Shown here: piece after piece, positions 2,679-56,070 of the stretch
Position numbering within the stretch: position 1 is the first letter of the stretch
How the letters are laid out: each line of letters opens with the position of its first letter
Made by a program: the position numbers and the translations under genes
The notes under the pieces: generated by a model
The model's input: only the letters and a program-made list of their open reading frames with translations
What the model was told of the DNA's origin: nothing
The model's database searches: none
From: a virus
Direction: 5' to 3' (one strand)
IMG/VR virus record: IMGVR_UViG_3300028558_000016
Coordinates: 278,014-342,013 of that record
DNA: 64,000 nucleotides

Positions 2679-2686
2679 ACATATAA

Positions 2687-4924: not shown

Positions 4925-4925
4925 A

Positions 4926-10333: not shown

Positions 10334-10336
10334 TTC

Positions 10337-29314: not shown

Positions 29315-30472
29315 ATGCAGATACCTAAAGACATAGCAGAAATTCAACAAAAATTCATCGCCGCTGGAAAAGAAATTTTCCTCGTTGGTGGATGTGTTCG
29401 TGATTTCAAGCTTGGTCTTGAGCCCAAAGATTTGGACATGGCAACCAATGCCTTTCCAGAAGAAATTGAAACCATCCTCAAAGGAGTTGAGATGGACCTT
29501 ACAGGCAAAAGTTTTGGAGTCATGCGGGTTCGCAGTGAGTTCGATCCAAACGGATACGAAATTGCCACATACAGAGAAGATGAGAGTGCTGGAAGAAAAC
29601 CGACCGTAAAGATCGGATCAACCATGGAAAACGATGCGTGGAGAAGAGACTTCACGATCAACGCTCTTTACTATGATATTTCCAACAAGACTATAATTGA
29701 TCACACTGGCGGGCTCAATGATTTAGAAAACAAAATCATTCGTGCTTGTGGCGATCCTGCGAAAAGAATTAACGATGATGCTTTGAGAATGCTTAGGGCA
29801 GTTCGTTTCAAAAATACTATTGGTGGAACTATTGATGTTGACTTGCATAATGCAATGTTGGCCAATCCTGTTTTACAAGGTCCAGACAAAGATGGAAATA
29901 TAGTACCAATATCACAGGAGAGAATAGCTGAGGAATTCCTTAAAGGTCTTTCCAAAAGCTACAACATGGATCTCGTTGACCAATATGTGAAAGATTTAAT
30001 GACATACCAATTTCTTGGACAAGTGTTCAGAGGACTTCACGTAAATGATAATTTTACATGCAACTCAAGAAAGCCTGAGATAATGATTGCGGATCTTTTA
30101 CGTTTTAATACGAATCACAAGGATTTATTTAATAAGCTTGTTTATGATTGCAAATTCAGTATTGATATTGCCGAAGGAGTTATTTTTCTTTTGAGCCTTG
30201 AAGATATTGATGAGGACAAAGTGTACAAGCTAAGAAAAAGAATGGACAGCAAAACCAAATTAAATAAGGATGATCTTATTATTTATTCAGGTTTAATGGT
30301 AGAGAATGGAATGATTGGAAGAGTTGCTTATGTACATGCATTCACTAAATATTCCATAACAACAAGCGGAGATGAATTAAAAGAAAAGGAAGGATTTGTT
30401 GATGGAGCAGAACTTGGAGCAGAGATAGCAAAAAGAGAGAAAAACAATTTTTTAAAAATATTTACACAATGA
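29315..30472 (+). CDS. cca: tRNA nucleotidyltransferase (CCA-adding enzyme / poly(A) polymerase head-domain family)
   Basis: FLVGGCVRDFKLGLEPKDLDMAT (GGxVRD...DxD) and RRDFTINALYYD motifs of class II CCA enzymes. Confidence 0.75.
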   Translation: MQIPKDIAEIQQKFIAAGKEIFLVGGCVRDFKLGLEPKDLDMATNAFPEEIETILKGVEMDLTGKSFGVMRVRSEFDPNGYEIATYREDESAGRKPTVKIGSTMENDAWRRDFTINALYYDISNKTIIDHTGGLNDLENKIIRACGDPAKRINDDALRMLRAVRFKNTIGGTIDVDLHNAMLANPVLQGPDKDGNIVPISQERIAEEFLKGLSKSYNMDLVDQYVKDLMTYQFLGQVFRGLHVNDNFTCNSRKPEIMIADLLRFNTNHKDLFNKLVYDCKFSIDIAEGVIFLLSLEDIDEDKVYKLRKRMDSKTKLNKDDLIIYSGLMVENGMIGRVAYVHAFTKYSITTSGDELKEKEGFVDGAELGAEIAKREKNNFLKIFTQ

Positions 30473-31161
30473 ACGAATCAAAAGACTTAAAAAGTTTAAT
30501 AGCATCCTTGCAGGAAGGAAGCGAGTTTTGTGATTTCATGATAACAAAGCTTCTTCACATGGATGGGTCCACCGATGCCGATCTTAAAAAAGATTACAGA
30601 AAACTCTTTAAAGAAGGAGGAGCTGATGCTTTTAAAGATGACATGAAAAATGGAAAGAAATTAAAGTATACAGAAGAAGAGCTTGAAATGATCGAGGAAA
30701 AAATAAATGAAATTTTTCCAGAAGGTCATGAGCCACTCACAACAACAATGATACCATTCGGTTTTTATCTTGGACAATTATTAAGAAAGAAGATACCAGG
30801 TGCTGAATGGAAAGTGACAGATGAGGTTAACAAGAAAAACAGTATATGGGATGTCTTTATTGAATTTAAAAATTCTGACGGATATACCATGCAGGCTAAA
30901 CCGTTCATGCGCGTTGATAAATTTTGGAGAAGGAGAGAAGATAAGATGTCAGCATTCGTTAAGATGATTGAAATGACATCTGAAATTAAAATGGATCCTG
31001 AGTATTGGAATAAACGCGCAGATGATGAAGGTTGGATTGAAACCGCTAACGAAATGTCGTTCAGGGTTTTTCAAGGAAGCAAGAAAGATAAAATAGATGG
31101 AGATTTCTCTAAAGCAAAGGGAATGTTTCATAACGGAAAATTTGGAGATGGAAAATATTAA
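30469..31161 (+). CDS. Hypothetical protein
   Basis: ORF with ATGA junction; no motif recognised. Confidence 0.45.
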   Translation: MNESKDLKSLIASLQEGSEFCDFMITKLLHMDGSTDADLKKDYRKLFKEGGADAFKDDMKNGKKLKYTEEELEMIEEKINEIFPEGHEPLTTTMIPFGFYLGQLLRKKIPGAEWKVTDEVNKKNSIWDVFIEFKNSDGYTMQAKPFMRVDKFWRRREDKMSAFVKMIEMTSEIKMDPEYWNKRADDEGWIETANEMSFRVFQGSKKDKIDGDFSKAKGMFHNGKFGDGKY

Positions 31162-32488
31162 TAAAATAAAAGACATACACTCGAGTGATGCCTATGGAAT
31201 TCTGGTAGAGACTGGATGTGGTCTTGCGGTATCTAATGAATTGCTTGAAGTCAGCGGTGCATCTAATACGGTTTATTTTGCTGAATGTCCATACAGCAAG
31301 GAATATCAAACATTCAAGTATGGCGAAACCAATGCGAGAGCGGTTTCAATGGAAAACATAAAGCACATAATGAATTATCATAAAGCTTTAGATAAACCAG
31401 AAAACGTTAACTTCATTTATGCTTCATCCTTTCAAGTAGGAGAACACAACGATAAATCAACTCATGGATGGATAGGTCTTTCATTAAAAGAAGATGACAG
31501 ACGTTATTTCCACATCTCAATACATGAGTCATTAACACGAAAACAATACATCGATAAAATATCTAAGATAGGAATTGACATTTTACATTTTTACATAAAC
31601 AAATCAACTGGTACAAATTTCATACCGAGCAATTGTTGCATTGACATAGTACTTAATGGAAAAGGTGAACAGGTCAATTTAACTGATATGTTTGTTTCTC
31701 TTAGATATGAAGACGATGAAAACTTCTTATGCTTCAAAGAAGGAAAATTAGTTAGAATGGAAGATCTTTTCAGAGATCAAAAGAACATAGTATTATTCAA
31801 GGGAAGCTTTAATCCAATCCATGCCGCTCACATACACACTGCACAATTAGCAAAGGATGAATATGGAATTGAACCTGTGTTTGTTATTAGTTCTTCAGTG
31901 TATCAAAAAGGATGGATAGAACCTGAGGATCTTAAGAACCGAGTGGAAACATTAAACGAACTTGGCTATCCTGTTATAATAACTAAAGATGGTTACTTTA
32001 ACAAGAACACGTCCTATATTAGACGTAAATTCAAACAACCTTTGATATACGTAGTTGGTTCGGATACATTAAACAGAATATTGGAAAGCTCATATAACAT
32101 TTTAAATCCAGAACTTAGCGAGAGATATAATCATTACGTCAATCAATTGATTTCCATGAAGCCTGAGAATGAACTGATAACAGACGAAGAATTGGATGAA
32201 ATAGAAAAAATGGCATTACAACATTATTTAAGAAGATTCAAAGAGGATTTCAAAGATGTAAAATTCTTCGTTGTAAATAGACCAGGGAGCGAATTGCACG
32301 AAGATGCAAAACGAATAGAAGAATTTTATTCAATGGTTGAAGAACATCCTGAGTATTTCCATATAAGCTCAACTAAAATTCGTGCCATGCTTATAGCTGG
32401 AGATTATGAGACAATTAAAAAATTGATACCAGAAAAAATATTTGAAAAGTATATTAACCAAAAAACAAACAACCATGTCAACAACTAA
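31148..32488 (+). CDS. Fusion of a CinA/PncC-like (NMN deamidase-like) domain and NMN/NaMN adenylyltransferase
   Basis: N-terminal domain VETGCGLAVSNELLEVSGASNTVYFAECPYSKEYQ parallels the PncC segment [35 protein letters not shown]. C-terminal domain GSFNPIHAAH is the (H/T)xGH nucleotidyltransferase motif. Confidence 0.55.
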   Translation: MENINKIKDIHSSDAYGILVETGCGLAVSNELLEVSGASNTVYFAECPYSKEYQTFKYGETNARAVSMENIKHIMNYHKALDKPENVNFIYASSFQVGEHNDKSTHGWIGLSLKEDDRRYFHISIHESLTRKQYIDKISKIGIDILHFYINKSTGTNFIPSNCCIDIVLNGKGEQVNLTDMFVSLRYEDDENFLCFKEGKLVRMEDLFRDQKNIVLFKGSFNPIHAAHIHTAQLAKDEYGIEPVFVISSSVYQKGWIEPEDLKNRVETLNELGYPVIITKDGYFNKNTSYIRRKFKQPLIYVVGSDTLNRILESSYNILNPELSERYNHYVNQLISMKPENELITDEELDEIEKMALQHYLRRFKEDFKDVKFFVVNRPGSELHEDAKRIEEFYSMVEEHPEYFHISSTKIRAMLIAGDYETIKKLIPEKIFEKYINQKTNNHVNN

Positions 32489-33144: not shown

Positions 33145-33990
33145 ATGTATAACATAAAATACCCGGTCGCATTCCACCCAGTGGATATGGCCATAACAAG
33201 AATACACGAAGGAAGAATACAAGTTCTCCTTGCGCAAAAAGTAAAAGACACAGAAGGTGGAGCTAACATTGTTAGATTCCCTGGAGGTTTCCTTGATGTG
33301 TGTGACTCGTGTGCTGAAGAAGCAGCATTGAGAGAAGCAATGGAAGAAACAGGAATGAGATTTGGAAACTCTGCTATGGCAGATTATTTCATCGGATACT
33401 TTGCTAAGAAGAAACCATTTACCGATAAGTTGAACAAACTTATAGAATCAAACGGTGATGCAAAGGAAATAACTGAAACCATCAACCAATTGCATGCAAT
33501 CAAAATATCCGATGATGCTTTAGCATGGTTGAGAACAAGAACAACTTACATTGGTTCAACTAAGATTGATGATGCAAGATATGCTGACACAGATCACAAA
33601 GTAATCACAAGCTTTTATGAGCTACATCCAAATCCAAAATTCGATAAGGATGGTGAAGGTCCATTTGATGACATCGCAAGAACAAAATGGTTTTTCCTTT
33701 CAGACATTAAAGAAGAAATCATGCACAAGTCGCATGTTCCATTGTTCAACATGTTATTTGAAAAATACAAAGCAGAGAGACTTGCAGACAACGTGTTTAA
33801 CGCTGCTGAAGAGGTATTCAAATCAACAGAGGAAATGTTCAACACCTTCAAAAAAGAAACTGATGAGATTTTTGATGGAATAAAAAAGAAAATGCCTGAA
33901 TACGAAAAGAAAGTGGATGAAGCAATGCAAGGCATGGGAAAGAAAATGGATAAGTTCTTTAGCGGTTTAGAAGATATTTTAAAATCTTAA
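33145..33990 (+). CDS. Nudix hydrolase with C-terminal helical extension
   Basis: GGFLDVCDSCAEEAALREAMEETGM contains a Nudix-box-like REAMEETGM (REUxEExGU). Confidence 0.6.
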   Translation: MYNIKYPVAFHPVDMAITRIHEGRIQVLLAQKVKDTEGGANIVRFPGGFLDVCDSCAEEAALREAMEETGMRFGNSAMADYFIGYFAKKKPFTDKLNKLIESNGDAKEITETINQLHAIKISDDALAWLRTRTTYIGSTKIDDARYADTDHKVITSFYELHPNPKFDKDGEGPFDDIARTKWFFLSDIKEEIMHKSHVPLFNMLFEKYKAERLADNVFNAAEEVFKSTEEMFNTFKKETDEIFDGIKKKMPEYEKKVDEAMQGMGKKMDKFFSGLEDILKS

Positions 33991-34287: not shown

Positions 34288-36081
34288 ATGAAAAGATCAA
34301 CTAAACATTTCGGAGATTATTCCGATGCGGAGTTAAAAAGCATGAGTCCTGAGCAACTCATTGCTATCATCTTGGAAGGTCAGAACGATGATAACTTCAT
34401 CATCATGACAGACTCTTACAAAATGACTCATCACCTGCTTTATCCTAATGGATTAAGAAGGGTTTACTCATATATGGAACCACGCGGCGGCGAAATGCCT
34501 TACACCGTATTCTTTGGATTGCAGTATTACATCAAAAGGTATCTTGCTGGAAGAAGAATCACCAAAGAGAAAATCGAAGATGCACGTCAAGCAAACATTG
34601 CACACTTTGGATTTGATTGCTTTGATGATACAATGTGGTATCACATATTAAATAAGCACGATGGTAAACTTCCATTGAGAATTAAAGCTATTCCTGAAGG
34701 AACTCCGATCGCTGTTAAGAATATCGTGATGGATATGGAAAACTTAGACCTTGATAATTGTGCAGCATTGACAAACATCACAGAAACATTGTTAATGAAA
34801 ATCTGGGCAACATGTACTGTCGCAGCTTACAATAGAATCATCAAGGAATTAATAACAAAGAATCACGCGATCACTTCAGACCTTCCAGCATTCTTGATTG
34901 ATTACATGCACCATGATTTTGGTTACAGAGGAACTTCATCAGAAGAGACTGCACGCTTAATGGCTGCGGCTGCAATGACAAGTTTTAAAGGAACTGACAC
35001 AATGGGCGGTTTAAGCTTAATCAAGAAATATTATTCTCCTGATGGAGCAACATGGTCTGAATGCATGGCAGGTTTCTCTGTTATTGCGTCTGAACACTCA
35101 GTTGTTTGTTCATACGGTGGAAGACACAAAGAAGCGAAATCATACCTTGACATTATAAACAAGGTTAAGAACCATCCTAAAATTAAGATAGCAAAACCAT
35201 TGAGCGGAGTAATTATTCTATCTTTGGTGTCTGACACTTATAACATCTACAATGTGTCTAAGAAAATTCTTAAACAATTGGAAAAAGAATTTATTGGATG
35301 GACAAACGATAACGGCATTCCAATTAAGATTGTTATTCGTCCTGACTCGGGAGTTCCTGCTAACGTGTTATTTGGATATAACGATGTTGTTAAAGGAATG
35401 GTTGCTGACAAAGATGCTTTAGCAGTAGCACCAATCGACCTTTGCAAAAGAGTTGCAGATGACATGTCGATAACTTTAGAAGAAGGAACAGAGCTTGTGA
35501 CCAAAGGAGTATTTGAAATACTGTTCGATGAATTTGGATCAACAACAAACACTAAAGGTTACAGAGTATTCCATCCACAAATAGGAGTATTACAAGGTGA
35601 TGGCGTTAAGTATACTGTCATCGATGAATTCCATGAGATCATGAAAACGAAAGAATACATGATAGACATCATGATGCTTGTTGTTGGTTCAGGCGGAAAA
35701 AATCTACAGGCTCACGATCGTGATGAACAAAAATGGGCAATCAAAGCAACTGAGGTTGGCATCGATAATGACTCAGTAATGGGTGGTATAGAAACAGTTC
35801 AAATAGAAAAAAATCCAATCACAGATCCTGGAAAGAAATCTAAAAAAGGAGATCTTAAGCTTGGCAAGAAAATGCTTAAGGTAGGCCCTGATTACGATTT
35901 CACAAAAGAATGGATGAACTTTAAAACCTTCCAAGAAGGTGAAGAAGGATTTGATACTGTAACAAACCTTTTAGTTCCTGTATTTGAAATGGGAGAAATC
36001 CTCGTTGAATACGATTTTGAAGAAGTGAGAGCGAACAGTGCGGTAGTATATCCTCAAATTAAAAAAACGGCTTTAGCCTAA
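34288..36081 (+). CDS. nadV: Nicotinamide phosphoribosyltransferase (NadV/NAMPT)
   Basis: FIIMTDSYKMTHHLLYPNGLRRVYSYMEPRGG closely parallels the NAMPT segment [31 protein letters not shown]; 597 aa. Confidence 0.85.
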   Translation: MKRSTKHFGDYSDAELKSMSPEQLIAIILEGQNDDNFIIMTDSYKMTHHLLYPNGLRRVYSYMEPRGGEMPYTVFFGLQYYIKRYLAGRRITKEKIEDARQANIAHFGFDCFDDTMWYHILNKHDGKLPLRIKAIPEGTPIAVKNIVMDMENLDLDNCAALTNITETLLMKIWATCTVAAYNRIIKELITKNHAITSDLPAFLIDYMHHDFGYRGTSSEETARLMAAAAMTSFKGTDTMGGLSLIKKYYSPDGATWSECMAGFSVIASEHSVVCSYGGRHKEAKSYLDIINKVKNHPKIKIAKPLSGVIILSLVSDTYNIYNVSKKILKQLEKEFIGWTNDNGIPIKIVIRPDSGVPANVLFGYNDVVKGMVADKDALAVAPIDLCKRVADDMSITLEEGTELVTKGVFEILFDEFGSTTNTKGYRVFHPQIGVLQGDGVKYTVIDEFHEIMKTKEYMIDIMMLVVGSGGKNLQAHDRDEQKWAIKATEVGIDNDSVMGGIETVQIEKNPITDPGKKSKKGDLKLGKKMLKVGPDYDFTKEWMNFKTFQEGEEGFDTVTNLLVPVFEMGEILVEYDFEEVRANSAVVYPQIKKTALA

Positions 36082-36567: not shown

Positions 36568-36885
36568 ATGAAGCAAGACGAAGAAGAAGACCAAATCATT
36601 TGTATTTGTTCAAAAGAAAATTCGGCTCATACCATTGGTATAAGAGTTCCATGCCGTGGTCCAGGCTGTAATGCTCAGCTTTGGCTGAGTGACAGCACTA
36701 TTAATAGAATTAAAAAGGAAAAAACGGATGTTGATTTAACGAAAACACCTCCTACCCCATTGTGTATGGATTGTGGATTGAAGGCTTTGAAAAATTCAAA
36801 GGATTTTAAAATAGCTCCACCAACCACCGAACAGATGGAAGAAATATTAAAGGCAATGACAGAAATCGATGCTCAACAAAGATGA
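36568..36885 (+). CDS. Cys-rich zinc-binding protein
   Basis: CICS...CRGPGC...CMDC cysteine clusters. Confidence 0.45.
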   Translation: MKQDEEEDQIICICSKENSAHTIGIRVPCRGPGCNAQLWLSDSTINRIKKEKTDVDLTKTPPTPLCMDCGLKALKNSKDFKIAPPTTEQMEEILKAMTEIDAQQR

Positions 36886-37501
36886 CATAATCAAAGCAGC
36901 AGGAGTCCATCCATTAAAGGTTAAAAACATTTACGTGTTTGGATCTCGGGTATATGGAACCGCAACAGCGGACTCTGACTATGACATCATTGTTGTTGCT
37001 AATTCCATGGATGAAAAGAGAGAAGTTGTTTATAAGGATCTCAATATCCATATTCATACTCCAGATAAATTCATTAGAGATCTCAAACAGCTTGACATGC
37101 ATAACCTCGAGTGCATCTTTGCTCCAGAAGGAGCAAAGATATTGGAAAAAGTAAATTATGTCGATGCTAATTTTAAGATCAATCCAGACCAAATGAAATA
37201 TGCTGCAATGAGCCAATCATTCAACAGGTTTCACACGGCCAAGGTGAAAATTCTCGATGGAGATTTTCACAGAGGAATTAAAAGCTTATTTCATTCATTA
37301 AGGATATTATTGTTTTCGATGCAAATACTTCGTAATGGAAGGATCGATGATTTTTCAGAAGCTAACAAATTTTGGGCCGACATCAAGATAGACATTCAAC
37401 TTACAAAAAATATCACCAACGAGGAAGAGATGTGGAGATATTTCAAAGATAAATATCTTCCACAAAAAATTGAATTAGAAAAACGATTAAAAGAAATGTA
37501 A
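36869..37501 (+). CDS. Minimal nucleotidyltransferase (MNT/KNTase-like) with C-terminal helical domain carrying an Rx6H HEPN-like motif
   Basis: YVFGSRVYGTATADSDYDIIVV is the GS...D.D nucleotidyltransferase motif. RGIKSLFH fits R(x4-6)H. Confidence 0.5.
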   Translation: MLNKDDIIKAAGVHPLKVKNIYVFGSRVYGTATADSDYDIIVVANSMDEKREVVYKDLNIHIHTPDKFIRDLKQLDMHNLECIFAPEGAKILEKVNYVDANFKINPDQMKYAAMSQSFNRFHTAKVKILDGDFHRGIKSLFHSLRILLFSMQILRNGRIDDFSEANKFWADIKIDIQLTKNITNEEEMWRYFKDKYLPQKIELEKRLKEM

Positions 37502-38845: not shown

Positions 38846-39348
38846 ATAAGCTCGAATATAGAATGTATGGAATAGTTCCTTACAACATTTCAGAAATACA
38901 AAAAGGAATCCAATTTGGACATGCTGTTGTAGAATACTCGTTGAAGTATTTTAAGAACGAAGACTTTCAACAGTGGGCCAAGAAGCACAAAACATTCATG
39001 GTTATGAATGGAGGAACAACCAATATGGGAGAAGGAACAATTCAAGGAAGACCCGATTGGATGGTTGAAGAACTTAAAGGGTCATTAAATAAATACGCCG
39101 ATTTACTTTCCAAAAATAAAATCAAATGCGCTTATTTCTTTGAGCCAGACTTAAATGATGCTTTAACTGCCGCGGTATTTCTTGCAGATGAAAGAGTTTT
39201 CGACAAGATTAAATATCCTGATTATGTTCCTCTTTCTTTTGATTTAGCAAAAAATGATCCACAACACGAGAAAGAATGGGTCAAATCTATAGGAGGAAAA
39301 CAAAATGTTTTCCTTCGTGAATTCATATCTAAACTAAGATTTGCATGA
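38842..39348 (+). CDS. Hypothetical protein
   Basis: ORF with ATGA junctions on both sides. Confidence 0.4.
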   Translation: MNKLEYRMYGIVPYNISEIQKGIQFGHAVVEYSLKYFKNEDFQQWAKKHKTFMVMNGGTTNMGEGTIQGRPDWMVEELKGSLNKYADLLSKNKIKCAYFFEPDLNDALTAAVFLADERVFDKIKYPDYVPLSFDLAKNDPQHEKEWVKSIGGKQNVFLREFISKLRFA

Positions 39349-40031
39349 AAACGACAGACAAATACGTATTATTTTATACTGAGGTATTTTCTCAGTGGCA
39401 TCCTTCCAATTTTGAAGTAGGAGGTAAAAAATTCTGCACAGCAGAACAATTCATGATGTATTTCAAAGCATTAACGTTCGGTGATCAAGAGATTGCAGAC
39501 AAGATATTAGCAACAAATAGTCCACGTGAACAAAAGAAACTTGGACGCGCTGTTAAAGGATTTGATGCTGTTAAATGGAATGCAATAGCCAAGGAAGTTG
39601 TATTCAAAGGAAACAGAGCTAAGTTTCAACAGAATCCAGAAATGTTCGAACAATTAATGGCAACAGGACACAAAGAACTTGTTGAAGCTTCCCCTTATGA
39701 TACTATATGGGGAATAGGCTTTGATGAAAATGCTCCTGAAGCTCTTGATAAGTCAACATGGAATGGAACAAATTGGCTTGGCGAAGTATTAACAAAGCTT
39801 AGAGATGTTCTTAGAAGAGAACAGACAATTCAAAACATAGTGAAACATGGTGAAGCTGAATTGGAAAAATTTGCCAGGGATTATCCAAATGACATAGGAC
39901 GATTGTATGAAAGCTATAAAAAATTGAAAACACAATCTTGGTCTGAAGATTTTTTAAGAGGATATTTAGGAGCTATAACAGATTTAATTATTATTAAAAA
40001 AGGACATTGGGGAGACTCATTTGTAAAATAA
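39345..40031 (+). CDS. NADAR-domain protein (YbiA-like; NAD/ADP-ribose N-glycosidase family)
   Basis: VLFYTEVFSQWHPSNFEVGGKKFCTAEQFMMYFKA...LGRAVKGFD...KFQQNP...LVEASPYDTIWGIGFDE parallels the E. coli YbiA pattern. Confidence 0.7.
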   Translation: MKTTDKYVLFYTEVFSQWHPSNFEVGGKKFCTAEQFMMYFKALTFGDQEIADKILATNSPREQKKLGRAVKGFDAVKWNAIAKEVVFKGNRAKFQQNPEMFEQLMATGHKELVEASPYDTIWGIGFDENAPEALDKSTWNGTNWLGEVLTKLRDVLRREQTIQNIVKHGEAELEKFARDYPNDIGRLYESYKKLKTQSWSEDFLRGYLGAITDLIIIKKGHWGDSFVK

Positions 40032-40668: not shown

Positions 40669-41592
40669 GTGAAAAGATTCCACGATTATAGCACATTCAA
40701 CGGCCTTGAAAATCTAAAACAGATTGTTGCCAAGAAAGATCCTTCCATGAGCGAAGACCTCATGAAGGCACTATTTCCATTAAGAGATAAGAACATTGGC
40801 AAAACATTGAAGGACATCATAAAGAGATTTGAAAAATCCGCTGAATACGATACACCGAACAAATGGTTCAGTCCAAACAAGTATAACACTTTTATGGAAT
40901 ACTTTCAAAGAGGATTAACCGACAAGAAGAAAGAAGAAATAGAAGCAACCATAGATCAATATCTCATGGTCATGCCTTCTGAATCAAACATTGAATCAAT
41001 AGGAAATTTCTCAGACACTTCATCGATATTAAGATTGAAGAAACCGACTAAAGACGTAGTTAAGGATTTAATGGATTTTGGAATAAGTGATGTGAGCACA
41101 TTAAACTTTATAAGCCTAAAGCTTCTCAAATGTTATTACCACAGGGTGCATTGCCCAGTAAGCGGAACTATACAAAAGATAACATTCATTGGAAGAGAAG
41201 AACCGTTGTTTGGAGACAATTCCCTATGGGTGGTTGAATTCAATTCAGAAGAAGGAAGAATTTACATGCTTGTAGTTGGAGAACTTTCTATACAGGATTT
41301 TAATTTCAACTTCAAAGAAGGAGACAAGGTTAACAAATTTGAAGAGCTCGGAAAATTCAATTGGGGTTCTCAGCTCGTTTTAATATATGCAAAAGATTCA
41401 TTCGTAAGCGAACCGTTGATCATAGAAAAGGAGAAATATTTTGTTGGTGATGGAATATTTAATAAGACAAAAATAGTTCAAGGCGATATTCTTAATTCAA
41501 TGCCAATTGACCAGATAGGAAATGGACAAAGAAACGGAACAATATACGGAGATGATATTTTAAAAGCACCAACAGGAGCAAACATATTTTAA
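40669..41592 (+). CDS. Phosphatidylserine decarboxylase-like protein
   Basis: GTG start. C-terminal LGKFNWGSQLVLIY resembles the PSD self-cleavage motif LGxFxMGSTVIxLF. EYFQRGL resembles the PSD FFxRxL motif. Length 307 aa. Confidence 0.45.
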   Translation: MKRFHDYSTFNGLENLKQIVAKKDPSMSEDLMKALFPLRDKNIGKTLKDIIKRFEKSAEYDTPNKWFSPNKYNTFMEYFQRGLTDKKKEEIEATIDQYLMVMPSESNIESIGNFSDTSSILRLKKPTKDVVKDLMDFGISDVSTLNFISLKLLKCYYHRVHCPVSGTIQKITFIGREEPLFGDNSLWVVEFNSEEGRIYMLVVGELSIQDFNFNFKEGDKVNKFEELGKFNWGSQLVLIYAKDSFVSEPLIIEKEKYFVGDGIFNKTKIVQGDILNSMPIDQIGNGQRNGTIYGDDILKAPTGANIF

Positions 41593-42235: not shown

Positions 42236-42566
42236 CATAGTTAAATGGCTTTATGCAATATATGTGTAGCTGTTCTACCTTCATCAGATGCAAGGACAAA
42301 AATTTAGGTGCGGTTATCTCCTTGCTAAACTATCGCATAGGTCAGGATTGCATTGAGAAATGCAATTGTATGGACAGACTTTAGGTATGATCATAATTTT
42401 AGAAACAAAAAAGGTATATAAGAATATAACAAGTCATGAAAACAACATTGTCATTAAGTCTAAGTTTGTCGCTATCCTTATCAGGATGGACTAACCGGGC
42501 TATGTGATAATTTCTGACTAATAAGAAATTTGAATGAACCCGGTGGAAACATCGGGTTTTTTATTT
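42236..42566 (+). ncRNA. Candidate small RNA between a promoter copy and an intrinsic terminator, upstream of the tRNA cluster
   Basis: About 330 nt with no ORF of 60 aa or more. Internal perfect hairpin ATTGCATTgagaAATGCAAT. Ends in the terminator aACCCGGTGgaaaCATCGGGTtttttt. Confidence 0.35.
42537..42566 (+). terminator. Rho-independent terminator
   Basis: ACCCGGTG gaaa CATCGGGT followed by tttttt. Confidence 0.6.
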
Positions 42567-42575: not shown

Positions 42576-42658
42576 GCCCATGTGGCGGAATTGGTAGACG
42601 CGCCGGTCTTAGGAACCGGTGCCTTTAAGGCGTGCAGGTTCGAGTCCTGTCATGGGTA
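42576..42658 (+). tRNA. tRNA-Leu (anticodon TAG), class II
   Basis: GCCCATG acceptor, AATTGGTAG D-loop, anticodon loop CTTAGGA, long variable arm, GTTCGAGT T-loop; no encoded CCA. Confidence 0.8.
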
Positions 42659-42739
42659 CAACGTGGTGAAAGTACATTCAGACTGTACCATCAGATTTTA
42701 GCTACTGATGAAGCATTTGTGGTGATGCTGCTGCGAATT

Positions 42740-42826
42740 GGTGAGATGTCCGAGTGGTTTAAGGAGCAACCCTGGAAAGGTTGTATACGGGAAACCGTAT
42801 CGTGGGTTCGAATCCCACTCTCACCG
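42740..42826 (+). tRNA. tRNA-Ser (anticodon GGA), class II
   Basis: GGTGAGA acceptor, 3-bp D-stem with GAGTGGTTTAA loop, anticodon loop CTGGAAA, long variable arm, discriminator G. Confidence 0.8.
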
Positions 42827-42836
42827 CAAATAAAAT

Positions 42837-42920
42837 GGAAGGTTGGTAGAGCGGTCTATTGCACCAGTCTTGAAAACTGGAGATCCTACGGGGTCCGTGA
42901 GTTCGAATCTCACACCTTCC
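42837..42920 (+). tRNA. tRNA-Ser (anticodon TGA), class II
   Basis: GGAAGGT acceptor, D-arm GTA/GAGCGGTCTAT/TGC, anticodon stem CCAGT with loop CTTGAAA; very similar to E. coli tRNA-Ser(UGA). Confidence 0.8.
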
Positions 42921-42926
42921 GCAATT

Positions 42927-43014
42927 GGAGAGCTACTCAAGTTGGTTAAGAGGCGCGTTTGCTAAACGTGTAGGACGAGAAATCGTTGGGTGGGTTCGAA
43001 CCCCACGCTCTCCG
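42927..43014 (+). tRNA. tRNA-Ser (anticodon GCT), class II
   Basis: GGAGAGC acceptor, anticodon loop TTGCTAA, long variable arm, discriminator G. Confidence 0.75.
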
Positions 43015-43025
43015 CAGAAAATTCT

Positions 43026-43108
43026 GCCCCCATGGTGGAATTGGTAGACACGCAGGACTTAAAATCCTGTGCCCTTAGGGCGTACGAGTTCGAGTCTCGT
43101 TGGGGGTA
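43026..43108 (+). tRNA. tRNA-Leu (anticodon TAA), class II
   Basis: GCCCCCA acceptor, anticodon stem CAGGA/TCCTG with loop CTTAAAA, long variable arm. Confidence 0.8.
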
Positions 43109-43115
43109 CATAAAT

Positions 43116-43197
43116 GCCGAGTTGGCGGAATTGGTAGACGCGCTGGTCTCAAACACCAGTGACGAAAGTCGTGTGGGTTCGAGTCCCACACTCGGTA
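43116..43197 (+). tRNA. tRNA-Leu (anticodon CAA), class II
   Basis: GCCGAGT acceptor, anticodon stem CTGGT/ACCAG with loop CTCAAAC, long variable arm. Confidence 0.8.
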
Positions 43198-43213
43198 CAA
43201 GAAGAAGAATAAA

Positions 43214-44677
43214 ATGGAAAATGATAAAAAATATTGCTTGGTGATGTTTCCTTATCCGTCTGGAGATGGATTGCACATTGGACATTGCTACAACTACTTG
43301 ATAGTTGATAGCTATTGTCGTTGGATGAAGAGAAAAGGAATTGAAGTGTTTCAACCATTTGGTTATGACGCTTTCGGTTTGCCTGCGGAGAATTATGCGA
43401 TCAAGCATAACAGAGATCCAAAAGAAGTCACCTATGAAAACATAGAAAATTTCAGAAGGCAGATGAAGAGATTGGATACTAATTATGAAGAGAAGTTAAT
43501 TACAGCTGATCCATCTTATTTCAAATGGACACAATGGTTGTTCACAAAGATGTTGGAGAAGGGAATTGCTTACAAGAAATTTCATCCAGTAAACTTTTGT
43601 CCATCTTGCGCAACAGTGATTGCCAATGAGCAGGTGAAGGAAGGAAAATGTGAGAGATGCAATTCAGTTGTTGAGATGAAAAACTTGAATCAATGGTTCT
43701 TCAGAATAACAGACTACACAGATAGGTTGATCAAGAACTTGCAATGGTTGGATTATCCCGAGAAAACCAAGAAGCAACAATTACATTGGTTGGAGAAGAT
43801 GAAAGAAAACAAGATCGATTGGTGTGTGTCAAGACAGAGAAAATGGGGATGTCCAATTCCTGTTGAAGGAGAGGAAGATACTTTGGACACATTTGTTGAC
43901 AGCTCATTTTACTACTTGAGATTCTTGACGGATTCTGAAGATGAATTCTTGCCAAGAGAAAAATATAAGCAGGTTGATTTGTACGTCGGAGGAAATGAAC
44001 ATGCTTGCATGCATTTGATTTATGCAAGATTTGTGAACATGTTCTTGTATGACTTGGGAATTGTTGAACAAGAAGAACCGTTCAAGAAGTTGATTCATCA
44101 GGGAATGATCAAGATGAATGGAACAAAGATGTCCAAGTCTATCGGCAATGTTGTTAATCCGGATGGGTATGATCCAGATGAATTGAGATTTTACTTGATG
44201 TTCATTGGACATTATTTTGATGGCGGAGATTGGAACGATCAAAACATTGTTGGCATAAGAAAATTCTTTGCACGATGGGATAAGCTTACTTTTAGAGAAG
44301 CAAAGGAAGGAATTGAATCTATGGATTTGACTGAATTTGAAAACCAGATCGATGGTTATGTGAAAGCTTTCAAGTTCAATAAGGTTGTTAGTTCATTCAT
44401 GGAATTTTACAACAATAATAGCAGCAGAAACTTTGACAAGGAAACCAGATTGAAGTTGAGAAGAATGTTGGAGTGTTTTGCGCCAACAAGATTTTCTAAA
44501 GATGAAAGGCCTCCAGTTGGCATGGATGAATTAAGAAGAAAATCCAATGAGTTGTCTGAGAACGTAAACAAGATTGAAGTAATGGTTAATAAAATTTTTA
44601 AAGATGTTGAACAAAAAGAAAATATCACCGGAATATCCGAGAATACCTCACTTGATGGGGAAGTCAAATCTGTATGA
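43214..44677 (+). CDS. leuS: Leucyl-tRNA synthetase-like class I aaRS catalytic core, apparently lacking the CP1 editing and C-terminal domains
   Basis: PYPSGDGLHIGHCYNY (HIGH) and MNGTKMSKSIGN (KMSKS). Only about 265 aa lie between the two motifs and 487 aa in total, against about 860 aa in bacterial LeuRS. Zinc knuckle CPSC...CERC present. Confidence 0.8.
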   Translation: MENDKKYCLVMFPYPSGDGLHIGHCYNYLIVDSYCRWMKRKGIEVFQPFGYDAFGLPAENYAIKHNRDPKEVTYENIENFRRQMKRLDTNYEEKLITADPSYFKWTQWLFTKMLEKGIAYKKFHPVNFCPSCATVIANEQVKEGKCERCNSVVEMKNLNQWFFRITDYTDRLIKNLQWLDYPEKTKKQQLHWLEKMKENKIDWCVSRQRKWGCPIPVEGEEDTLDTFVDSSFYYLRFLTDSEDEFLPREKYKQVDLYVGGNEHACMHLIYARFVNMFLYDLGIVEQEEPFKKLIHQGMIKMNGTKMSKSIGNVVNPDGYDPDELRFYLMFIGHYFDGGDWNDQNIVGIRKFFARWDKLTFREAKEGIESMDLTEFENQIDGYVKAFKFNKVVSSFMEFYNNNSSRNFDKETRLKLRRMLECFAPTRFSKDERPPVGMDELRRKSNELSENVNKIEVMVNKIFKDVEQKENITGISENTSLDGEVKSV

Positions 44678-45308
44678 CGATGACATTGAGATCAATGTTG
44701 AGTTAGGGTTTGATGCCTTTGTACAAGAGAAGGTTGATGGAGCAAACTGTGGAATCAGTTGGTTCGATGGACCCATTCTCAGAAACAGAACCCATGTGTT
44801 AAGAAAGGGATTTGAAAGAGACACTCCAGCAAAGAAACAATTTGTTCCAGCTTGGAATTGGTTGCATGAAAGAGAAGATGACTTGAAGGAGATGATGAAG
44901 AAGTGGAATGGACAGATAACTGTTTATGGAGAGTGGATGCTTGCAAAACATTCTATTGGATATGAGAAGCTTCCAGATTATTTTCTTGCTTATGACATTT
45001 GGTCGTGTGAAGAAAACAAGTTTGTTTCTCCGAAGGAATGCAAGGAACTTTTGAATGGGACTGGCATAAGATGGATCGAAGCAGAAAGAATAAGCATTCA
45101 ATCGTTCTCTGATTTGAAGTCAGTTCTTGATGTTCCCTCTAAGTACAGAGATGGAATTAAAGAAGGAATAGTTATCAAGAAAACTGACGAAGACGATAAG
45201 TGGATAGAGAAGACTTTCAAGGTTGTTAGAAAAGATTTTGAAAGGGCTGATGAAAGCTGGAATAAGAAAAAGCTTGAAAAGAATAAGCTGATAAAGAGGA
45301 GTGCCTGA
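44655..45308 (+). CDS. Minimal ATP-dependent polynucleotide (probably RNA) ligase, nucleotidyltransferase domain only
   Basis: Motif I EKVDGAN (KxDG), motif IV EGIVIKK, motif V KVVRKD. The track ORF starts at 44604 inside leuS; 44655 is the internal ATG. Confidence 0.5.
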   Translation: MGKSNLYDDDIEINVELGFDAFVQEKVDGANCGISWFDGPILRNRTHVLRKGFERDTPAKKQFVPAWNWLHEREDDLKEMMKKWNGQITVYGEWMLAKHSIGYEKLPDYFLAYDIWSCEENKFVSPKECKELLNGTGIRWIEAERISIQSFSDLKSVLDVPSKYRDGIKEGIVIKKTDEDDKWIEKTFKVVRKDFERADESWNKKKLEKNKLIKRSA

Positions 45309-45380
45309 GTGGCTGAAAGGACCGGTCTCGAAAACCGGCACACCCAAAAGGTGTCGTGAGTTCGAATCTCACCTCCTCTG
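45295..45380 (+). tRNA. tRNA-Ser (anticodon CGA), class II
   Basis: AGAGGAG acceptor (A1-U72), D-arm CCT/GAGTGGCTGAA/AGG, anticodon loop CTCGAAA, long variable arm, discriminator G; overlaps the last 14 nt of the ligase ORF. Confidence 0.75.
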
Positions 45381-45419
45381 CATTTTTTAATTTGATGATT
45401 TTTTTGTAAATTCACTATC

Positions 45420-45725
45420 ATGAATGATGAAGATAAAAAAATAAAGGGATCATTGTTTTTCTTGTACATCGGCAAGCTTAAAGAATTGGGTTTGATAGAA
45501 GGTGGCGCAGGAGATTTGACCATGAAAGGTTTTGACATTGCCATTGATGCCTATAACAGTGGACATAGATTGTCAGATGAGGAGATTAGTAATTTTCTCG
45601 AAGCCGCTCCTGGAATGGACGATGACGACACAATAGAGGCAGCATTTGGAATGATAGCCAAGATGCAAGAAATTGGATTTGATGGAATGAAAGAATTGGT
45701 TGAACGAGTAAAGAAAACATTATGA
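45420..45725 (+). CDS. Hypothetical acidic protein
   Basis: ORF with ATGA junction to Sir2. Confidence 0.4.
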   Translation: MNDEDKKIKGSLFFLYIGKLKELGLIEGGAGDLTMKGFDIAIDAYNSGHRLSDEEISNFLEAAPGMDDDDTIEAAFGMIAKMQEIGFDGMKELVERVKKTL

Positions 45726-46432
45726 AAAAGAAATTAGTGGTGTTTAGCGGTGCAGGAGTTTCTGCTGAGAGCGGAATTCCTACATTCAGAGATTCAAATG
45801 GTCTTTGGGAAAACCATAAGATGGAAGATGTTGCTACTCCAGAAGGATGGGAGAAAAACAGAGAGCTTGTTCTCAACTTCTACAATCTTATGAGAACGAA
45901 ACTCAAAGCAGTTGTTCCGAATAAAGCTCACAATATAATTGCAGAGCTTGAAGAACATTTTGAAGTTACAGTCATCACACAAAACATAGATGACTTGCAT
46001 GAGAGAAGCGGCTCAAAGAAGGTCATACATCTTCATGGAGAATTAATGAAGAGCAGAAGCACATTTAATCCAAATCTAAAATACGAGTGTACTGGAAATA
46101 TAAACATAGGTGACAAATGTGAGAAAGGTTCTCAATTGAGGCCTGACATAGTTTGGTTTCATGAAAATGTTTATCACCTTGACACTGCGGCTGAATTGGT
46201 AGAACAGTGCGATATTCTTCTTGTTGTTGGAACTTCATTAAATGTTTGGCCTGCAGCAGGATTGTTATATGTGACGAAACCGGAAACTGAAATATATTGC
46301 ATTGATCCAAAAACAGTTGTTGGAAGTGATATTCAAGTTACTCACATAAAGAAGAAAGCGAGTGAAGGGATGGAGAAATTTAAAAAGATTATTCTCGAGA
46401 AAAAAGATAAGAAAGAAAATTGCTGTTTATAA
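45722..46432 (+). CDS. Sir2-family NAD-dependent protein deacylase / ADP-ribosyltransferase (sirtuin, CobB-like)
   Basis: FSGAGVSAESGIPTFR, TQNIDDLHERSG, catalytic His in IHLHGEL, and VVGTS are canonical sirtuin motifs. Confidence 0.8.
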   Translation: MKKKLVVFSGAGVSAESGIPTFRDSNGLWENHKMEDVATPEGWEKNRELVLNFYNLMRTKLKAVVPNKAHNIIAELEEHFEVTVITQNIDDLHERSGSKKVIHLHGELMKSRSTFNPNLKYECTGNINIGDKCEKGSQLRPDIVWFHENVYHLDTAAELVEQCDILLVVGTSLNVWPAAGLLYVTKPETEIYCIDPKTVVGSDIQVTHIKKKASEGMEKFKKIILEKKDKKENCCL

Positions 46433-46436
46433 TAAT

Positions 46437-46518
46437 GCCCAGGTGTTGGAATTGGTAGACAAGCACGGTTGAGGGCCGTGTGCAGTAATGCGTAGGGGTT
46501 CGAGTCCCCTTCTGGGTA
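46437..46518 (+). tRNA. tRNA-Leu (anticodon GAG), class II
   Basis: GCCCAGG acceptor, anticodon stem CACGG/CCGTG with loop TTGAGGG, long variable arm; the next ORF starts 2 nt after its 3' end. Confidence 0.75.
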
Positions 46519-46519
46519 C

Positions 46520-48481: not shown

Positions 48482-49225
48482 TTGTTCTCTGTGATAGAGA
48501 TAAAATGTATATTAAAATACGATCCTGTTCCATTATCTGGAAAAGCAGAAACCATGTGCAAACCTTGGTGGATGATCGCAACATGCGAAGGAGATCTCAC
48601 TGAATATTATGCATGGCTTCTTAAAAAACGAACAGGATTAATTCTCCAACGCCCTGCATGGGGCGCACATATCTCAGTCATAAGAGGAGAAGAACCACCC
48701 AACAAAGAATTATGGAAAAAATACCAGGACAAAGAAGTCACTTTGCTCTATGATCCAAACGTCAGAACAAATGGAGATCATTGGTGGATGAGAGTCCATT
48801 GCAACGAACTTCTTGACATAAGAGAAGAATTAGGTCTTCCAAGATTTGGAGCATTAACTTTACACCTCACGTTAGGAAGACCAATCCCAAGACACGAAGA
48901 AGCATCAGATTATTTCCATACAGTTTTTAAATCATTCGCTCCATCGGCGCCAATAAGACCATACATGACACAAGAAGAAGCTTTAAAGAATTTGTCTTTG
49001 CCTCCAATGGAAGTAAAGCATAAAGAATTAAAAACACCTGAACATTCAGACTCTATGTTCAGAAAGGAATGTCCAAACTGTGAGACTGGATTATTGATGA
49101 TGAAAAGAAATCAGTCAACGCTCGCTCTTGAAAAAGATGATAATTGCACTTATTGTGGAAGACGATTCACTTACACTGACATAAAAGAAAACTCAGTAAT
49201 ATTAGAATATAATGAAAAAGCTTGA
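48482..49225 (+). CDS. 2H-superfamily phosphoesterase (LigT/CPDase-like) with C-terminal zinc ribbon
   Basis: Two H-x-(S/T) motifs (AHISVIRG and LHLTLGRP) plus C-terminal CPNC...CTYCG. Confidence 0.5.
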   Translation: MFSVIEIKCILKYDPVPLSGKAETMCKPWWMIATCEGDLTEYYAWLLKKRTGLILQRPAWGAHISVIRGEEPPNKELWKKYQDKEVTLLYDPNVRTNGDHWWMRVHCNELLDIREELGLPRFGALTLHLTLGRPIPRHEEASDYFHTVFKSFAPSAPIRPYMTQEEALKNLSLPPMEVKHKELKTPEHSDSMFRKECPNCETGLLMMKRNQSTLALEKDDNCTYCGRRFTYTDIKENSVILEYNEKA

Positions 49226-49587: not shown

Positions 49588-50535
49588 ATGAAAGAAATAA
49601 TATTACCGGTAGGACTTCCTGCAGCAGGAAAATCCACAATAGTAAATGATTACGTCAGCCAGGGGTTTGCTAAACTTTCGAGAGATGAAATTGGAGGAGG
49701 TCTTGAAGTAGACGGAAAAGTAAATACAAAACTCAAGGATTGGATCCGAATGGGCAAGGAACAAATAATAATGGATGCTACTTACATGACTAAGGAAGTT
49801 AGGAAGCATGTTATAGACATTGCGAAGAAGAATGGATATAAAGTAACATGCGTTCACATTGCAACATCAATAGAAGATTCTCAATTTAATGCAGTTTCGA
49901 GAATGATCAACAGGCATGGAAAACTATTTCAACACGCAGACGATTATACCAAGGCAAAAGATCCTAACATGTTTCCAGTTGCTGCCTTATACAAAGCGAA
50001 TAAAATAATCGAAAAGCCAACCATGTCAGAAGGATTCGACGAGGTTAAAATAGTTCCTTTCAAAAGGAAATTAAACGGCTACACAAACAAAGCAATATTA
50101 TTTGATTATGATGGAACACTAAGACAGACTAAAAATGCCGATTCATTATATCCAACAGATCCAAGCGACATTGAAATTCTTCCTGGGAGAACTGAAAAGA
50201 TCAATGAATTGAAAAAAGAAGGTTACATCATACTCGGTGTTTCAAATCAAAGTGGTGTTGCTAAAGGAGTATTGACTTACGAAATGGCCGATAAGTGTTT
50301 CAAGAAAACAAATGAGCTTTTAGGTGTTGACATCGATTACAGATTTTGTTCTCACAAGGTTCCACCTATCACATGTTATTGCAGAAAACCAGGAGTTGGA
50401 TTTGGGGTTGAGTTCATCGAGAAATATAAATTGGATCCATCACAATGTATCATGGTTGGAGATATGAAATCCGATGAGACCTTCGCAAAGAGATGTGGTT
50501 TTAAATTTGTTCACGTAGATAAATTCTTTAAATGA
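49588..50535 (+). CDS. pnk: Polynucleotide 5'-kinase / 3'-phosphatase (T4 Pnk-like)
   Basis: N-terminal P-loop VGLPAAGKST and C-terminal HAD motif ILFDYDGTL (DxDGT); same domain order as T4 Pnk. Confidence 0.7.
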   Translation: MKEIILPVGLPAAGKSTIVNDYVSQGFAKLSRDEIGGGLEVDGKVNTKLKDWIRMGKEQIIMDATYMTKEVRKHVIDIAKKNGYKVTCVHIATSIEDSQFNAVSRMINRHGKLFQHADDYTKAKDPNMFPVAALYKANKIIEKPTMSEGFDEVKIVPFKRKLNGYTNKAILFDYDGTLRQTKNADSLYPTDPSDIEILPGRTEKINELKKEGYIILGVSNQSGVAKGVLTYEMADKCFKKTNELLGVDIDYRFCSHKVPPITCYCRKPGVGFGVEFIEKYKLDPSQCIMVGDMKSDETFAKRCGFKFVHVDKFFK

Positions 50536-55389: not shown

Positions 55390-56070
55390 ATGATACAGTA
55401 TAATGAGTTCAGATACATTTTTCCACCACGTGCGGAAAATGCTCTTTCACCTGATGCGTTGAAAGATTACGATAACGGAAAATATATTGCCCAACCAAAA
55501 CTTGATGGCGATTGCATGTTGATATTCACAAATGGAATAGAGACACGCATTATGGATCGTCACAAAAAAGAATTCTTGAAGAACATCAAGATGACTCCAA
55601 CACTTCAAAAGCTTCACAGAGAAACTGACAATGGAACAAAAAATAAATGGATGATCCTTGTTGGTGAGCACATGATCAAATCAAAAAAGAATGCCGAAGG
55701 TAAAACATGGAATGAGAAGTATGTTATTTTTGACATCATTGCTTTTGATGGAATTCAGTTAGTAGGCAAAACATTTCAGGAGAGACAAGAACTTCTCGAT
55801 AAGCTTTTTGGAAAAGAAGAAGTTGCATTGACAAAAACTGGAACATATAAGGATAAATTCCTTTATGCAACGGAAATTGAAGACGTGTTTCGCGTTAAAT
55901 CATTCCGTGATTGTTTTTCTGCTCTTTGGAGCGATTTGACAAAGATTGACATGTACGAAGGTCTCGTTATAAAAAGAGCCGATGCAAAACTTGAAAATGG
56001 AAGCACACAAAAGAACAACATAAATTCACAATTAAAATTCAGAAAGGCCACTTTAAATTATCCACATTAA
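55390..56070 (+). CDS. Minimal ATP-dependent polynucleotide ligase (nucleotidyltransferase domain only)
   Basis: Motif I AQPKLDGDCML (KxDG) and motif IV YEGLVIKRADAK. Confidence 0.5.
   Translation: MIQYNEFRYIFPPRAENALSPDALKDYDNGKYIAQPKLDGDCMLIFTNGIETRIMDRHKKEFLKNIKMTPTLQKLHRETDNGTKNKWMILVGEHMIKSKKNAEGKTWNEKYVIFDIIAFDGIQLVGKTFQERQELLDKLFGKEEVALTKTGTYKDKFLYATEIEDVFRVKSFRDCFSALWSDLTKIDMYEGLVIKRADAKLENGSTQKNNINSQLKFRKATLNYPH

Follow-up and report, generated by a model that had tools for sequence, protein, structure and literature searches.

The leucyl-tRNA synthetase (LeuRS) of Mycoplasma mobile (MmLeuRS; 3ZIU, 637 aa) is a cellular enzyme in which a 9-mer stands in place of the CP1 editing domain and GKDG in place of the leucine-specific domain (LSD). 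It still aminoacylates, mischarges isoleucine, and has a kcat/Km of ~0.24 s-1 uM-1, compared with 2.2 s-1 uM-1 for the Escherichia coli enzyme (EcLeuRS) (PMC3643597). Among viruses, the huge phages carry up to 15 aminoacyl-tRNA synthetase (aaRS) genes per genome, proposed to charge phage tRNA variants, and tRNA ligation genes proposed to counter host cleavage; a domain-stripped LeuRS is not described in the main text of that report (Al-Shayeb et al. 2020, PMC7162821). In the present study, a 64,000-nucleotide stretch of viral DNA (positions 278,014 to 342,013 of IMG/VR record IMGVR_UViG_3300028558_000016; hereafter the window) was analysed for a plus-strand open reading frame (ORF) that a first-pass annotation, made from the letters alone, had read as a miniature LeuRS of 487 aa without CP1 and the C-terminal domain (CTD). 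The ORF, its motifs and the domain alignment bore out this claim and extended it. By its sequence and predicted fold, the ORF is a bacterial-type LeuRS core with the class Ia HIGH/KMSKS Rossmann fold (mini-LeuRS), and on balance we favour the view that it acts alone on the phage tRNA-Leu. Its features are as follows.

43214-44677, plus strand: mini-LeuRS gene, ATG start, 487 aa, with Rossmann core, ZN1 domain, shortened anticodon-binding domain and lineage-specific tail
43271-43285, plus strand: LHIGH signature, residues 20-24, nearly invariant across the family
43598-43660, plus strand: ZN1 zinc knuckle C129-x2-C132-x13-C146-x2-C149 (CPSC...CERC), containing N138/E139, with Q160 just downstream and outside the range
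43793-43816, plus strand: 8-residue linker EKMKENKI, residues 194-201, at the position of CP1 (~195 residues)
43817-43849, plus strand: DWCVSRQRKWG, residues 202-212, the class Ia core motif after CP1, with D202, W203, S206, R207, Q208, R209, W211 and G212 invariant
44126-44140, plus strand: KMSKS loop, residues 305-309, preceded by KMNGT, which replaces the LSD
44243-44497, plus strand: shortened helical anticodon-binding domain, residues ~344-428, stopping at CFAP, just ahead of the bacterial 'FAPH..LW' helix
44498-44677, plus strand: lineage-specific C-terminal tail, residues 429-487, overlapping the start of the next ORF

Several lines of evidence identify the protein, with match scores well past anything expected by chance. 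Only class I synthetase catalytic families were matched in Pfam, with tRNA-synt_1 at E=3.6e-38, and the best NCBIfam model was leuS_bact (TIGR00396, E=6.6e-120). A sequence search of the Protein Data Bank (PDB) returned 3ziu, the CP1-less MmLeuRS, as the top match (E=1.8e-92), followed by the LeuRS of T. thermophilus, N. gonorrhoeae and E. coli. The AlphaFold2 model, built from a 50-sequence alignment, reached a predicted local distance difference test (pLDDT) of 86.9 and a predicted template-modelling score (pTM) of 0.82, and the top Foldseek match in the PDB was again 3ziu, with a template-modelling score of 0.78 normalised to the query. The alignment, the domain map and this confident fold confirmed the LeuRS core. 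The zinc knuckle is retained as first annotated; the HIGH-to-KMSKS spacing, put at about 265 residues at that stage, is 280 by actual count.

The likeness to MmLeuRS extends to the manner of reduction. CP1 gives way to a short linker in both proteins (KEEIDGKIT there, EKMKENKI here, and ~4 residues in relatives of mini-LeuRS, such as ENLN in L075), the LSD is cut to a few residues in both (GKDG and MNGT, respectively), and both keep the ZN1 domain and the catalytic motifs. However, MmLeuRS keeps an N-terminal helix, the full anticodon-binding domain, the CTD and a ZN2-equivalent insertion (~40 residues, placed by the alignment between positions 229 and 222 of the query), four elements that the mini-LeuRS family does not have, and at ~420 aa the family is about 215 residues shorter. 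In addition, MmLeuRS is a housekeeping enzyme, whereas the family is restricted to viruses. With canonical bacterial LeuRS (TIGR00396; E. coli, T. thermophilus), mini-LeuRS shares the core, the CP1 insertion point after ZN1, HIGH, KMSKS, the leucyl-adenylate (Leu-AMP) pocket and the ZN-domain tRNA-contact residues, and the tRNA-Leu genes that flank it carry the same A73; it differs in the absence of CP1, CTD, ZN2 and LSD.

The domain losses were mapped by alignment with the full-length LeuRS of Acinetobacter and of S. aureus, which occur in 'phage' records through contamination with host DNA. The two losses annotated initially, CP1 and CTD, are both real, but the list was incomplete. First, the N-terminal ~35 residues are missing. 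Second, CP1 (~195 residues) has been swapped for EKMKENKI, and no match to PF13603 was obtained in Pfam. Third, the ~55-residue insertion bearing ZN2 is gone, and the LSD is replaced by MNGT, a reduction similarly seen in S. aureus and M. mobile. Fourth, the anticodon-binding domain is trimmed, its last helix included, and the whole CTD is gone, so that the family terminates at 'FAP'. The ZN2-region insertion, the full anticodon-binding domain and the CTD are all kept in CP1-less forms of 570-650 aa, according to the domain-coverage tables, and are gone from mini-LeuRS.

A length about half that of bacterial LeuRS and a leuS_bact score of 401.6 bits, under the equivalog cut-off of 548.4 (NCBIfam TIGR00396), might point to a pseudogene, a fragment or an assembly or frameshift artefact of a normal leuS, and the first-pass annotation had itself raised the prospect that the missing domains are encoded in adjacent frames. 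This scenario was looked for by tblastn of five full-length or CP1-less LeuRS against the window and ruled out: only two collinear in-frame pieces were recovered, both inside the ORF, with no further LeuRS pieces in any frame. The ORF is single and uninterrupted, bounded upstream by a tRNA that ends 15 nt before the ATG and downstream by an RNA ligase gene. Moreover, more than 100 independent assemblies show the same architecture, purifying selection on the core is strong, and the predicted fold is confident and compact. The artefact explanation is therefore effectively refuted, and its residual probability is negligible.

Residue conservation was scored in 50 family members. MFPYPSG, H21/G23/H24, D52, E262/H263 and K305-M306-x-K308 were invariant or nearly so, as were the four zinc cysteines, N138/E139/Q140, R148, Q160/W161 and DWCxSRQRxWG. 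In the E. coli LeuRS transfer complex, three parts of the enzyme lock the acceptor stem, namely Asn168, Glu169 and Gln190 of the ZN domain, residues 286-298 of the editing domain, and the KMSKS loop, and the adenylate is held by Leu41, His52, Asp80, Glu532 and His533 (PMC13454842). The LeuRS zinc motif given in the same report, Cys159-x2-Cys162-x13-Cys176-x2-His/Cys179, has a spacing identical to that of C129-x2-C132-x13-C146-x2-C149, which fixes the alignment register to EcLeuRS. In this register, N168, E169 and Q190 of EcLeuRS correspond to N138, E139 and Q160, and L41, Y43, H52, D80, E532 and H533 correspond to F12, Y14, H24, D52, E262 and H263, a mapping that derives from the motif register and not from a solved structure. 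R178 corresponds to the invariant R148, and W177 is replaced by E147. As judged from these residues and the model, the leucyl-adenylate pocket of mini-LeuRS is intact, and since N138, E139 and Q160 are kept, the parts that handle the tRNA 3' end are conserved in addition to the adenylation site.

The ratio of non-synonymous to synonymous substitution rates (dN/dS) was estimated by comparison with L075, a syntenic relative with 86% protein identity across the core. For the core (residues 1-428) dN/dS was 0.036, an approximate value with dS saturated at ~2.3, and for the tail (residues 429-487) it was 0.40-0.45, ten times the core value. The core is under strong purifying selection. The protein had initially been described as having no C-terminal extension; residues 429-487 do form one, though not a CTD homologue. 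The tail is limited to the closest relatives, P0001 to P0004, and in the AlphaFold2 model it consists of one long helix (437-471) and, beyond this, a disordered end. It was loosely placed against the CTD by MAFFT and in one BLAST extension; a degenerate CTD was ruled out by the profile score (0.4 bits, against 24-51 bits for genuine CTDs), the single predicted long helix and the tenfold dN/dS. Because the tail is weakly constrained, limited to one lineage, overlaps the next ORF and does not match the CTD profile, the 487-aa length is, on sequence grounds, inflated by a weakly constrained extension, and the functional unit is the ~420-aa core.

The family is large. A search of 5.8 billion proteins recovered at least 120 clusters at 64-87% identity with a median length of 423 aa, and many of these clusters were located on contigs of 200-440 kb; the typical length is ~410-430 aa. 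Among viral contigs of IMG/VR, a single-sequence search gave no mini-LeuRS, and an alignment-based search found the mini form on ~55 contigs of up to 608 kb. The best annotated relatives are in huge-phage genomes, namely 'Mahaphage' LR745206 (422 aa, 64.5% identity) and LR756501 (508 aa, 34% identity), and Bacteroidetes hosts have been predicted for phage genomes >634 kb (Al-Shayeb et al., PMC7162821). In a cellular survey of one genome per species (185,579 bacterial and archaeal species), from which the best 80 loci were kept, one mini-form match was observed among these 80, on a 2.9-kb contig of a Bacteroidota metagenome-assembled genome; at most of the others the match spans ~2 kb and thus includes CP1. 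The mini-LeuRS family is virus-restricted and almost absent from cellular species genomes. Clustering at 50% reduced it to a single representative, P0121. Public databases label its members 'leucyl-tRNA synthetase' or 'class I tRNA ligase family protein', and no description of a phage mini-LeuRS of such architecture was found in the literature searched. Unlike the reduced LeuRS, other aaRS encoded at these loci seem to be of full length, e.g. a 532-aa GlnRS in L001.

Viral LeuRS genes form a graded series of reduction, from complete enzymes to the mini form.

Full-length LeuRS, 778-1021 aa: viral contigs L063-L070
CP1-less form with the CTD kept, 618 aa: L054
CP1-less and CTD-less form with ZN2 kept, 508 aa: L002
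Form with a shrunken CP1 (~110 residues), without ZN2 and without CTD, 520-531 aa: L059, L062, P0094, P0122
Mini form, about 410-430 aa: L001, L005, L044, L047, L058 and the window

The shrunken CP1 still displays TTKPKT and GTGYVMGVPNDDKRD, so that the ~110-residue remnant in P0094, P0122, L059 and L062 keeps Thr-rich and GTG..D motifs. These four proteins look like evolutionary intermediates and might retain a miniature editing site. The 508-aa form clusters, in terms of BLAST similarity, with the CP1-less, CTD-bearing forms, and the ~420-aa family clusters with the CTD-less forms that have a partial CP1; because the two group differently, the sequences suggest that the CTD was lost more than once among viral LeuRS. 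Other variants were also observed. In P0099 (616 aa; NCBI and JGI sources), the N-terminus of a mini-LeuRS is fused to a dephospho-CoA-kinase-like P-loop domain (PF01121/PF13238). In L054, a 134-kb viral contig, a transfer-messenger RNA gene with the tag peptide GETQFAMAA lies at 10291-10652, ~2.5 kb past the stop of the 618-aa CP1-less LeuRS. In L028, a 280-aa protein (1682-2524) consists of only a class II (Asp/Lys/Asn-type) catalytic core (PF00152, E=1.5e-15) without an anticodon-binding domain, and homologues occur in 7 loci, ~4 kb upstream of mini-LeuRS. This protein may be a second core-only aaRS-like gene or an AsnA/EpmA-type paralogue.

The tRNA genes beside mini-LeuRS were examined with ARAGORN. 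Eight are present in the window, all inside 42576-46519.

42576-42659, plus strand: tRNA-Leu(UAG), 84 nt, type II, G1.U72, A73, no encoded CCA
42740-43015, plus strand: three tRNA-Ser (GGA, UGA, GCU)
43026-43109, plus strand: tRNA-Leu(UAA), 84 nt, G1.U72, A73
43116-43198, plus strand: tRNA-Leu(CAA), 83 nt, G1.U72, A73, ending 15 nt before the LeuRS ATG
45295-45381, plus strand: tRNA-Ser(CGA)
46437-46519, plus strand: tRNA-Leu(GAG), 83 nt, G1.U72, A73

The gene had been described as adjoining four tRNA-Leu genes, and this holds (starts at 42576, 43026 and 43116, directly upstream, and at 46437, downstream), but the picture was incomplete, as four tRNA-Ser genes (42740, 42837, 42927 and 45295) are interleaved with them. 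With Leu anticodons UAG, UAA, CAA and GAG and Ser anticodons GGA, UGA, GCU and CGA, the block provides complete decoding sets for two six-codon amino acids, and all eight tRNAs are of type II with a long variable arm. The tRNA-Leu/LeuRS layout recurs in L075, in 12 of the 58 IMG/VR loci and beside the 508-aa LeuRS of the 735-kb phage. About one third of all tRNAs flanking mini-LeuRS genes are Leu tRNAs. The proximity of an aaRS gene to its cognate tRNAs is a pattern in such genomes, since the GlnRS gene of L001 adjoins tRNA-Gln genes.

Two acceptor-end features stand out among the flanking tRNA-Leu genes. A73, the major identity element for bacterial LeuRS, is present in 62 of the 65 unique genes. 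G1.U72 was found in 37 of these 65 genes compared with 13 of 136 other tRNAs across the loci, and in all four tRNA-Leu of the window. Since G1.U72 also occurs in some bacterial tRNA-Leu isoacceptors, it may be inherited rather than phage-specific.

Unusual tRNA bodies were also observed. Among the 65 unique Leu-anticodon genes, 23 are only 74-78 nt long and resemble type I tRNAs, as their variable loop is short and their D-arm ordinary. They resemble the long tRNA-Leu in carrying A73 (21 of 23) and G1.U72 (15 of 23). To our knowledge, bacterial tRNA-Leu are otherwise always long-armed, as are all four in the window. Conversely, long-variable-arm tRNAs of 82-91 nt carry anticodons of amino acids that normally have short tRNAs, some of them with a Leu-like D-arm, and have non-A discriminators. 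Taken together, the sequences suggest that tRNA bodies and anticodons have been extensively swapped in huge-phage tRNA arrays.

Short-arm tRNA-Leu: L002 5012-5164; L006 5776-5850 and 7888-7962; L008 4803-4877 and 5019-5177
Further short-arm tRNA-Leu: L011 3949-4206 and 4580-4654; L019, L020 and L073; L075 7794-7867
Long-arm Gln and Asn tRNAs: L001 9131-9212 (Gln); L039 4378-4464, L015 4279-4365 and L024 9425-9512 (Asn)
Long-arm Cys tRNAs: L011 3173-3256, L013 2869-2955 and L024 10456-10542
Long-arm Thr, Met, Ile, Val, His and Arg tRNAs: in L015, L024, L027, L039 and L071

Herein, we propose that mini-LeuRS is a stand-alone, editing-less minimal LeuRS serving the phage tRNA-Leu, a reading that sequence and model make somewhat probable. 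Of the three options raised by the first-pass annotation (a stripped-down LeuRS, a tRNA-Leu-binding decoy or modifier, or an enzyme using the core for another adenylation reaction), the first fits best, given the intact adenylate site, the ZN-domain contacts, the purifying selection and the synteny with tRNA-Leu in two differently reduced lineages, although it is only partly supported. Several points weigh against it. The LeuRS of T. thermophilus and E. coli lose aminoacylation when the CTD is deleted, and truncation of the CTD in M. tuberculosis LeuRS weakens tRNA binding (PMC3561953). MmLeuRS, the CP1-less precedent, keeps its CTD, whereas the mini-LeuRS family has none and is additionally without ZN2 and the N-terminal helix. 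No gain of positive charge compensates for the lost RNA-binding domain (median isoelectric point 6.1, net charge -5). Furthermore, most of the more distant members of the family are not adjacent to tRNA-Leu genes, no tRNA-Leu being found within 6 kb at 46 of the 58 loci, and the family-model score falls short of the equivalog cut-off, as given above.

The loss of the CTD, lethal for charging in the bacterial enzymes tested, might be made good by a partner. Mini-LeuRS would then contribute the catalytic subunit, and a separate phage or host protein would bind the tRNA, so that tRNA-Leu would be charged only by the two together. Such a split or assisted LeuRS would resemble the alpha/beta enzyme of Aquifex aeolicus, in which the CTD of the beta subunit binds tRNA-Leu (PMC3561953). 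These phages encode hundreds of uncharacterised proteins among which a partner could lie. However, unlike the Aquifex type, no second gene for the end of the anticodon-binding domain plus CTD was found, within the sensitivity of tblastn, in the window, LR745206 or LR756501. The CP1 and the anticodon-binding-domain end plus CTD of P0123, the nearest full-length LeuRS, had no tblastn match in these two complete phage genomes with a reduced LeuRS (635 kb and 735 kb, respectively), a result that leaves room for a non-homologous or distantly encoded partner. When the P0123 domains were searched against 50,697 phage records, the only matches were bacterial leuS in contaminated records. In addition, when all ORFs within 6 kb of mini-LeuRS at 55 loci were clustered, no conserved neighbour was found, and the only recurrent cluster was an antisense ORF within the mini-LeuRS gene itself. 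We regard such a partnership as unlikely.

The same losses could also mean that the protein no longer charges tRNA. Sulfolobaceae LeuRS-I and haloarchaeal LeuRS2, additional copies of LeuRS whose editing and C-terminal regions are degenerate, have a doubtful role in charging, and LeuRS paralogues that bind tRNA and form Leu-AMP without charging provide a precedent (PMC9437257). By analogy with LeuRS-I, mini-LeuRS would be an adenylate-forming paralogue whose Leu-AMP would go to a different acceptor or into signalling, or it would bind tRNA-Leu as a shield, decoy or sensor and leave it uncharged. The absence of CTD, CP1, ZN2 and N-terminal helix together, the loss of charging by CTD-deleted bacterial enzymes (PMC3561953), the lack of nearby tRNA at most more distant family members and the fusion to a P-loop kinase-like domain in P0099 are compatible with this possibility. 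However, the archaeal copies are archaeal-type, cellular and near full length, with CP1 disrupted rather than deleted, and in mini-LeuRS the ZN residues that contact the acceptor stem and DWxxSRQRxWG are conserved. In two lineages the gene lies in synteny with tRNA-Leu arrays, and a pure decoy would not need HIGH, KMSKS and the adenylate pocket held at a dN/dS of 0.04. A non-charging role thus seems rather doubtful, slightly more so than a split enzyme.

If mini-LeuRS acts as a stand-alone synthetase, the following steps are proposed. First, it would activate leucine to Leu-AMP and transfer the leucine to A76 of tRNA-Leu. Second, recognition would centre on the acceptor end, with its A73 discriminator, and would involve the core, ZN1 and the KMSKS loop; for want of a CTD, the enzyme would touch neither the elbow nor the variable arm. 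Third, because the enzyme has no CP1, post-transfer proofreading would not take place, and from the M. mobile precedent we infer that it would be error-prone. In the cell, it might sustain leucine decoding for phage protein synthesis when the host supply of tRNA and aaRS is depleted, attacked or shut down. The idea of a LeuRS core acting on the acceptor stem alone is shared with engineered CP1- or CTD-deleted LeuRS and with urzymes, including LeuRS urzyme-minihelix work (PMC11229368); those are laboratory truncations of very low activity, whereas mini-LeuRS is natural and maintained by selection. A bolder and improbable extension is that the ~420-aa LeuRS reads the acceptor end only (A73, often G1.U72) and dispenses with elbow and variable-arm recognition as well as proofreading. 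Because of such recognition, phage tRNA-Leu could be free to lose the long arm, giving a compact, partly host-insulated and possibly deliberately error-tolerant pair.

The window is rich in genes for tRNA or RNA maintenance and NAD-related functions, and under the proposed mechanism the Leu/Ser tRNA array with its synthetase would sit in a tRNA-maintenance island that includes a CCA-adding-type enzyme, an RNA ligase, a PNK/phosphatase and RlaP-like nucleotidyltransferases.

29315-30472, plus strand: CCA-adding-type nucleotidyltransferase (PolyA_pol head domain)
18773-19903, minus strand: RlaP-like nucleotidyltransferase
36869-37501: RlaP-like nucleotidyltransferase
44604-45308, plus strand: RNA ligase (PF09414), its start overlapping the LeuRS tail
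49588-50535, plus strand: PNK/phosphatase (polynucleotide kinase/3'-phosphatase, tRNA/RNA repair)
48482-49225: weak 2H phosphoesterase match
55390-56070: ligase/capping-type nucleotidyltransferase
34288-36081: NAMPT
31097-32488: NMNAT-like cytidylyltransferase
33145-33990: Nudix
39345-40031: NADAR
25340-26788: PARP-like catalytic domain
45722-46432: Sir2

None of the eight window tRNAs encodes CCA, so the CCA-adding-type enzyme is probably needed. The RNA-repair gene set is consistent with repair of host-cleaved tRNAs, and the NAD/ADP-ribose genes adjoining the tRNA island resemble an NAD+ salvage and counter-defence module. With regard to transcription, a promoter scan gave 16 promoter-like sites against 15.3 expected. 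On the plus strand, the sole terminator-like hairpin (42536-42559) closely precedes the first tRNA. Since no plus-strand terminator-like site was found from the tRNA array to 47000, the arrangement is compatible with co-transcription, and mini-LeuRS is probably co-transcribed with the Leu/Ser tRNA array. Elsewhere in the window, three consecutive large ORFs at 1287-6950 (463, 745 and 674 aa) contain many collagen triple-helix repeats (Pfam E down to 2e-63) and are presumably fibre or surface proteins, and a phosphatidylserine-decarboxylase-like ORF at 40669-41592 (PF02666, E=2.4e-17) occupies the same position in the syntenic L075.

If active alone, mini-LeuRS would rank as the smallest LeuRS in nature and would show, by a natural example, how little protein suffices to charge tRNA-Leu. 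For enzymology, a natural and strongly selected ~420-aa bacterial-type LeuRS without CP1 and CTD offers a test of the minimal charging determinants and of life in the absence of LeuRS proofreading. In synthetic biology, a useful small and possibly orthogonal pair could be made of such a compact enzyme and a short-arm tRNA-Leu. For phage biology, these results indicate that huge phages reduce synthetases stepwise rather than simply copying those of the host, that intermediates of this process persist on viral contigs, and that the reduced LeuRS genes are embedded in islands of tRNA supply and repair.

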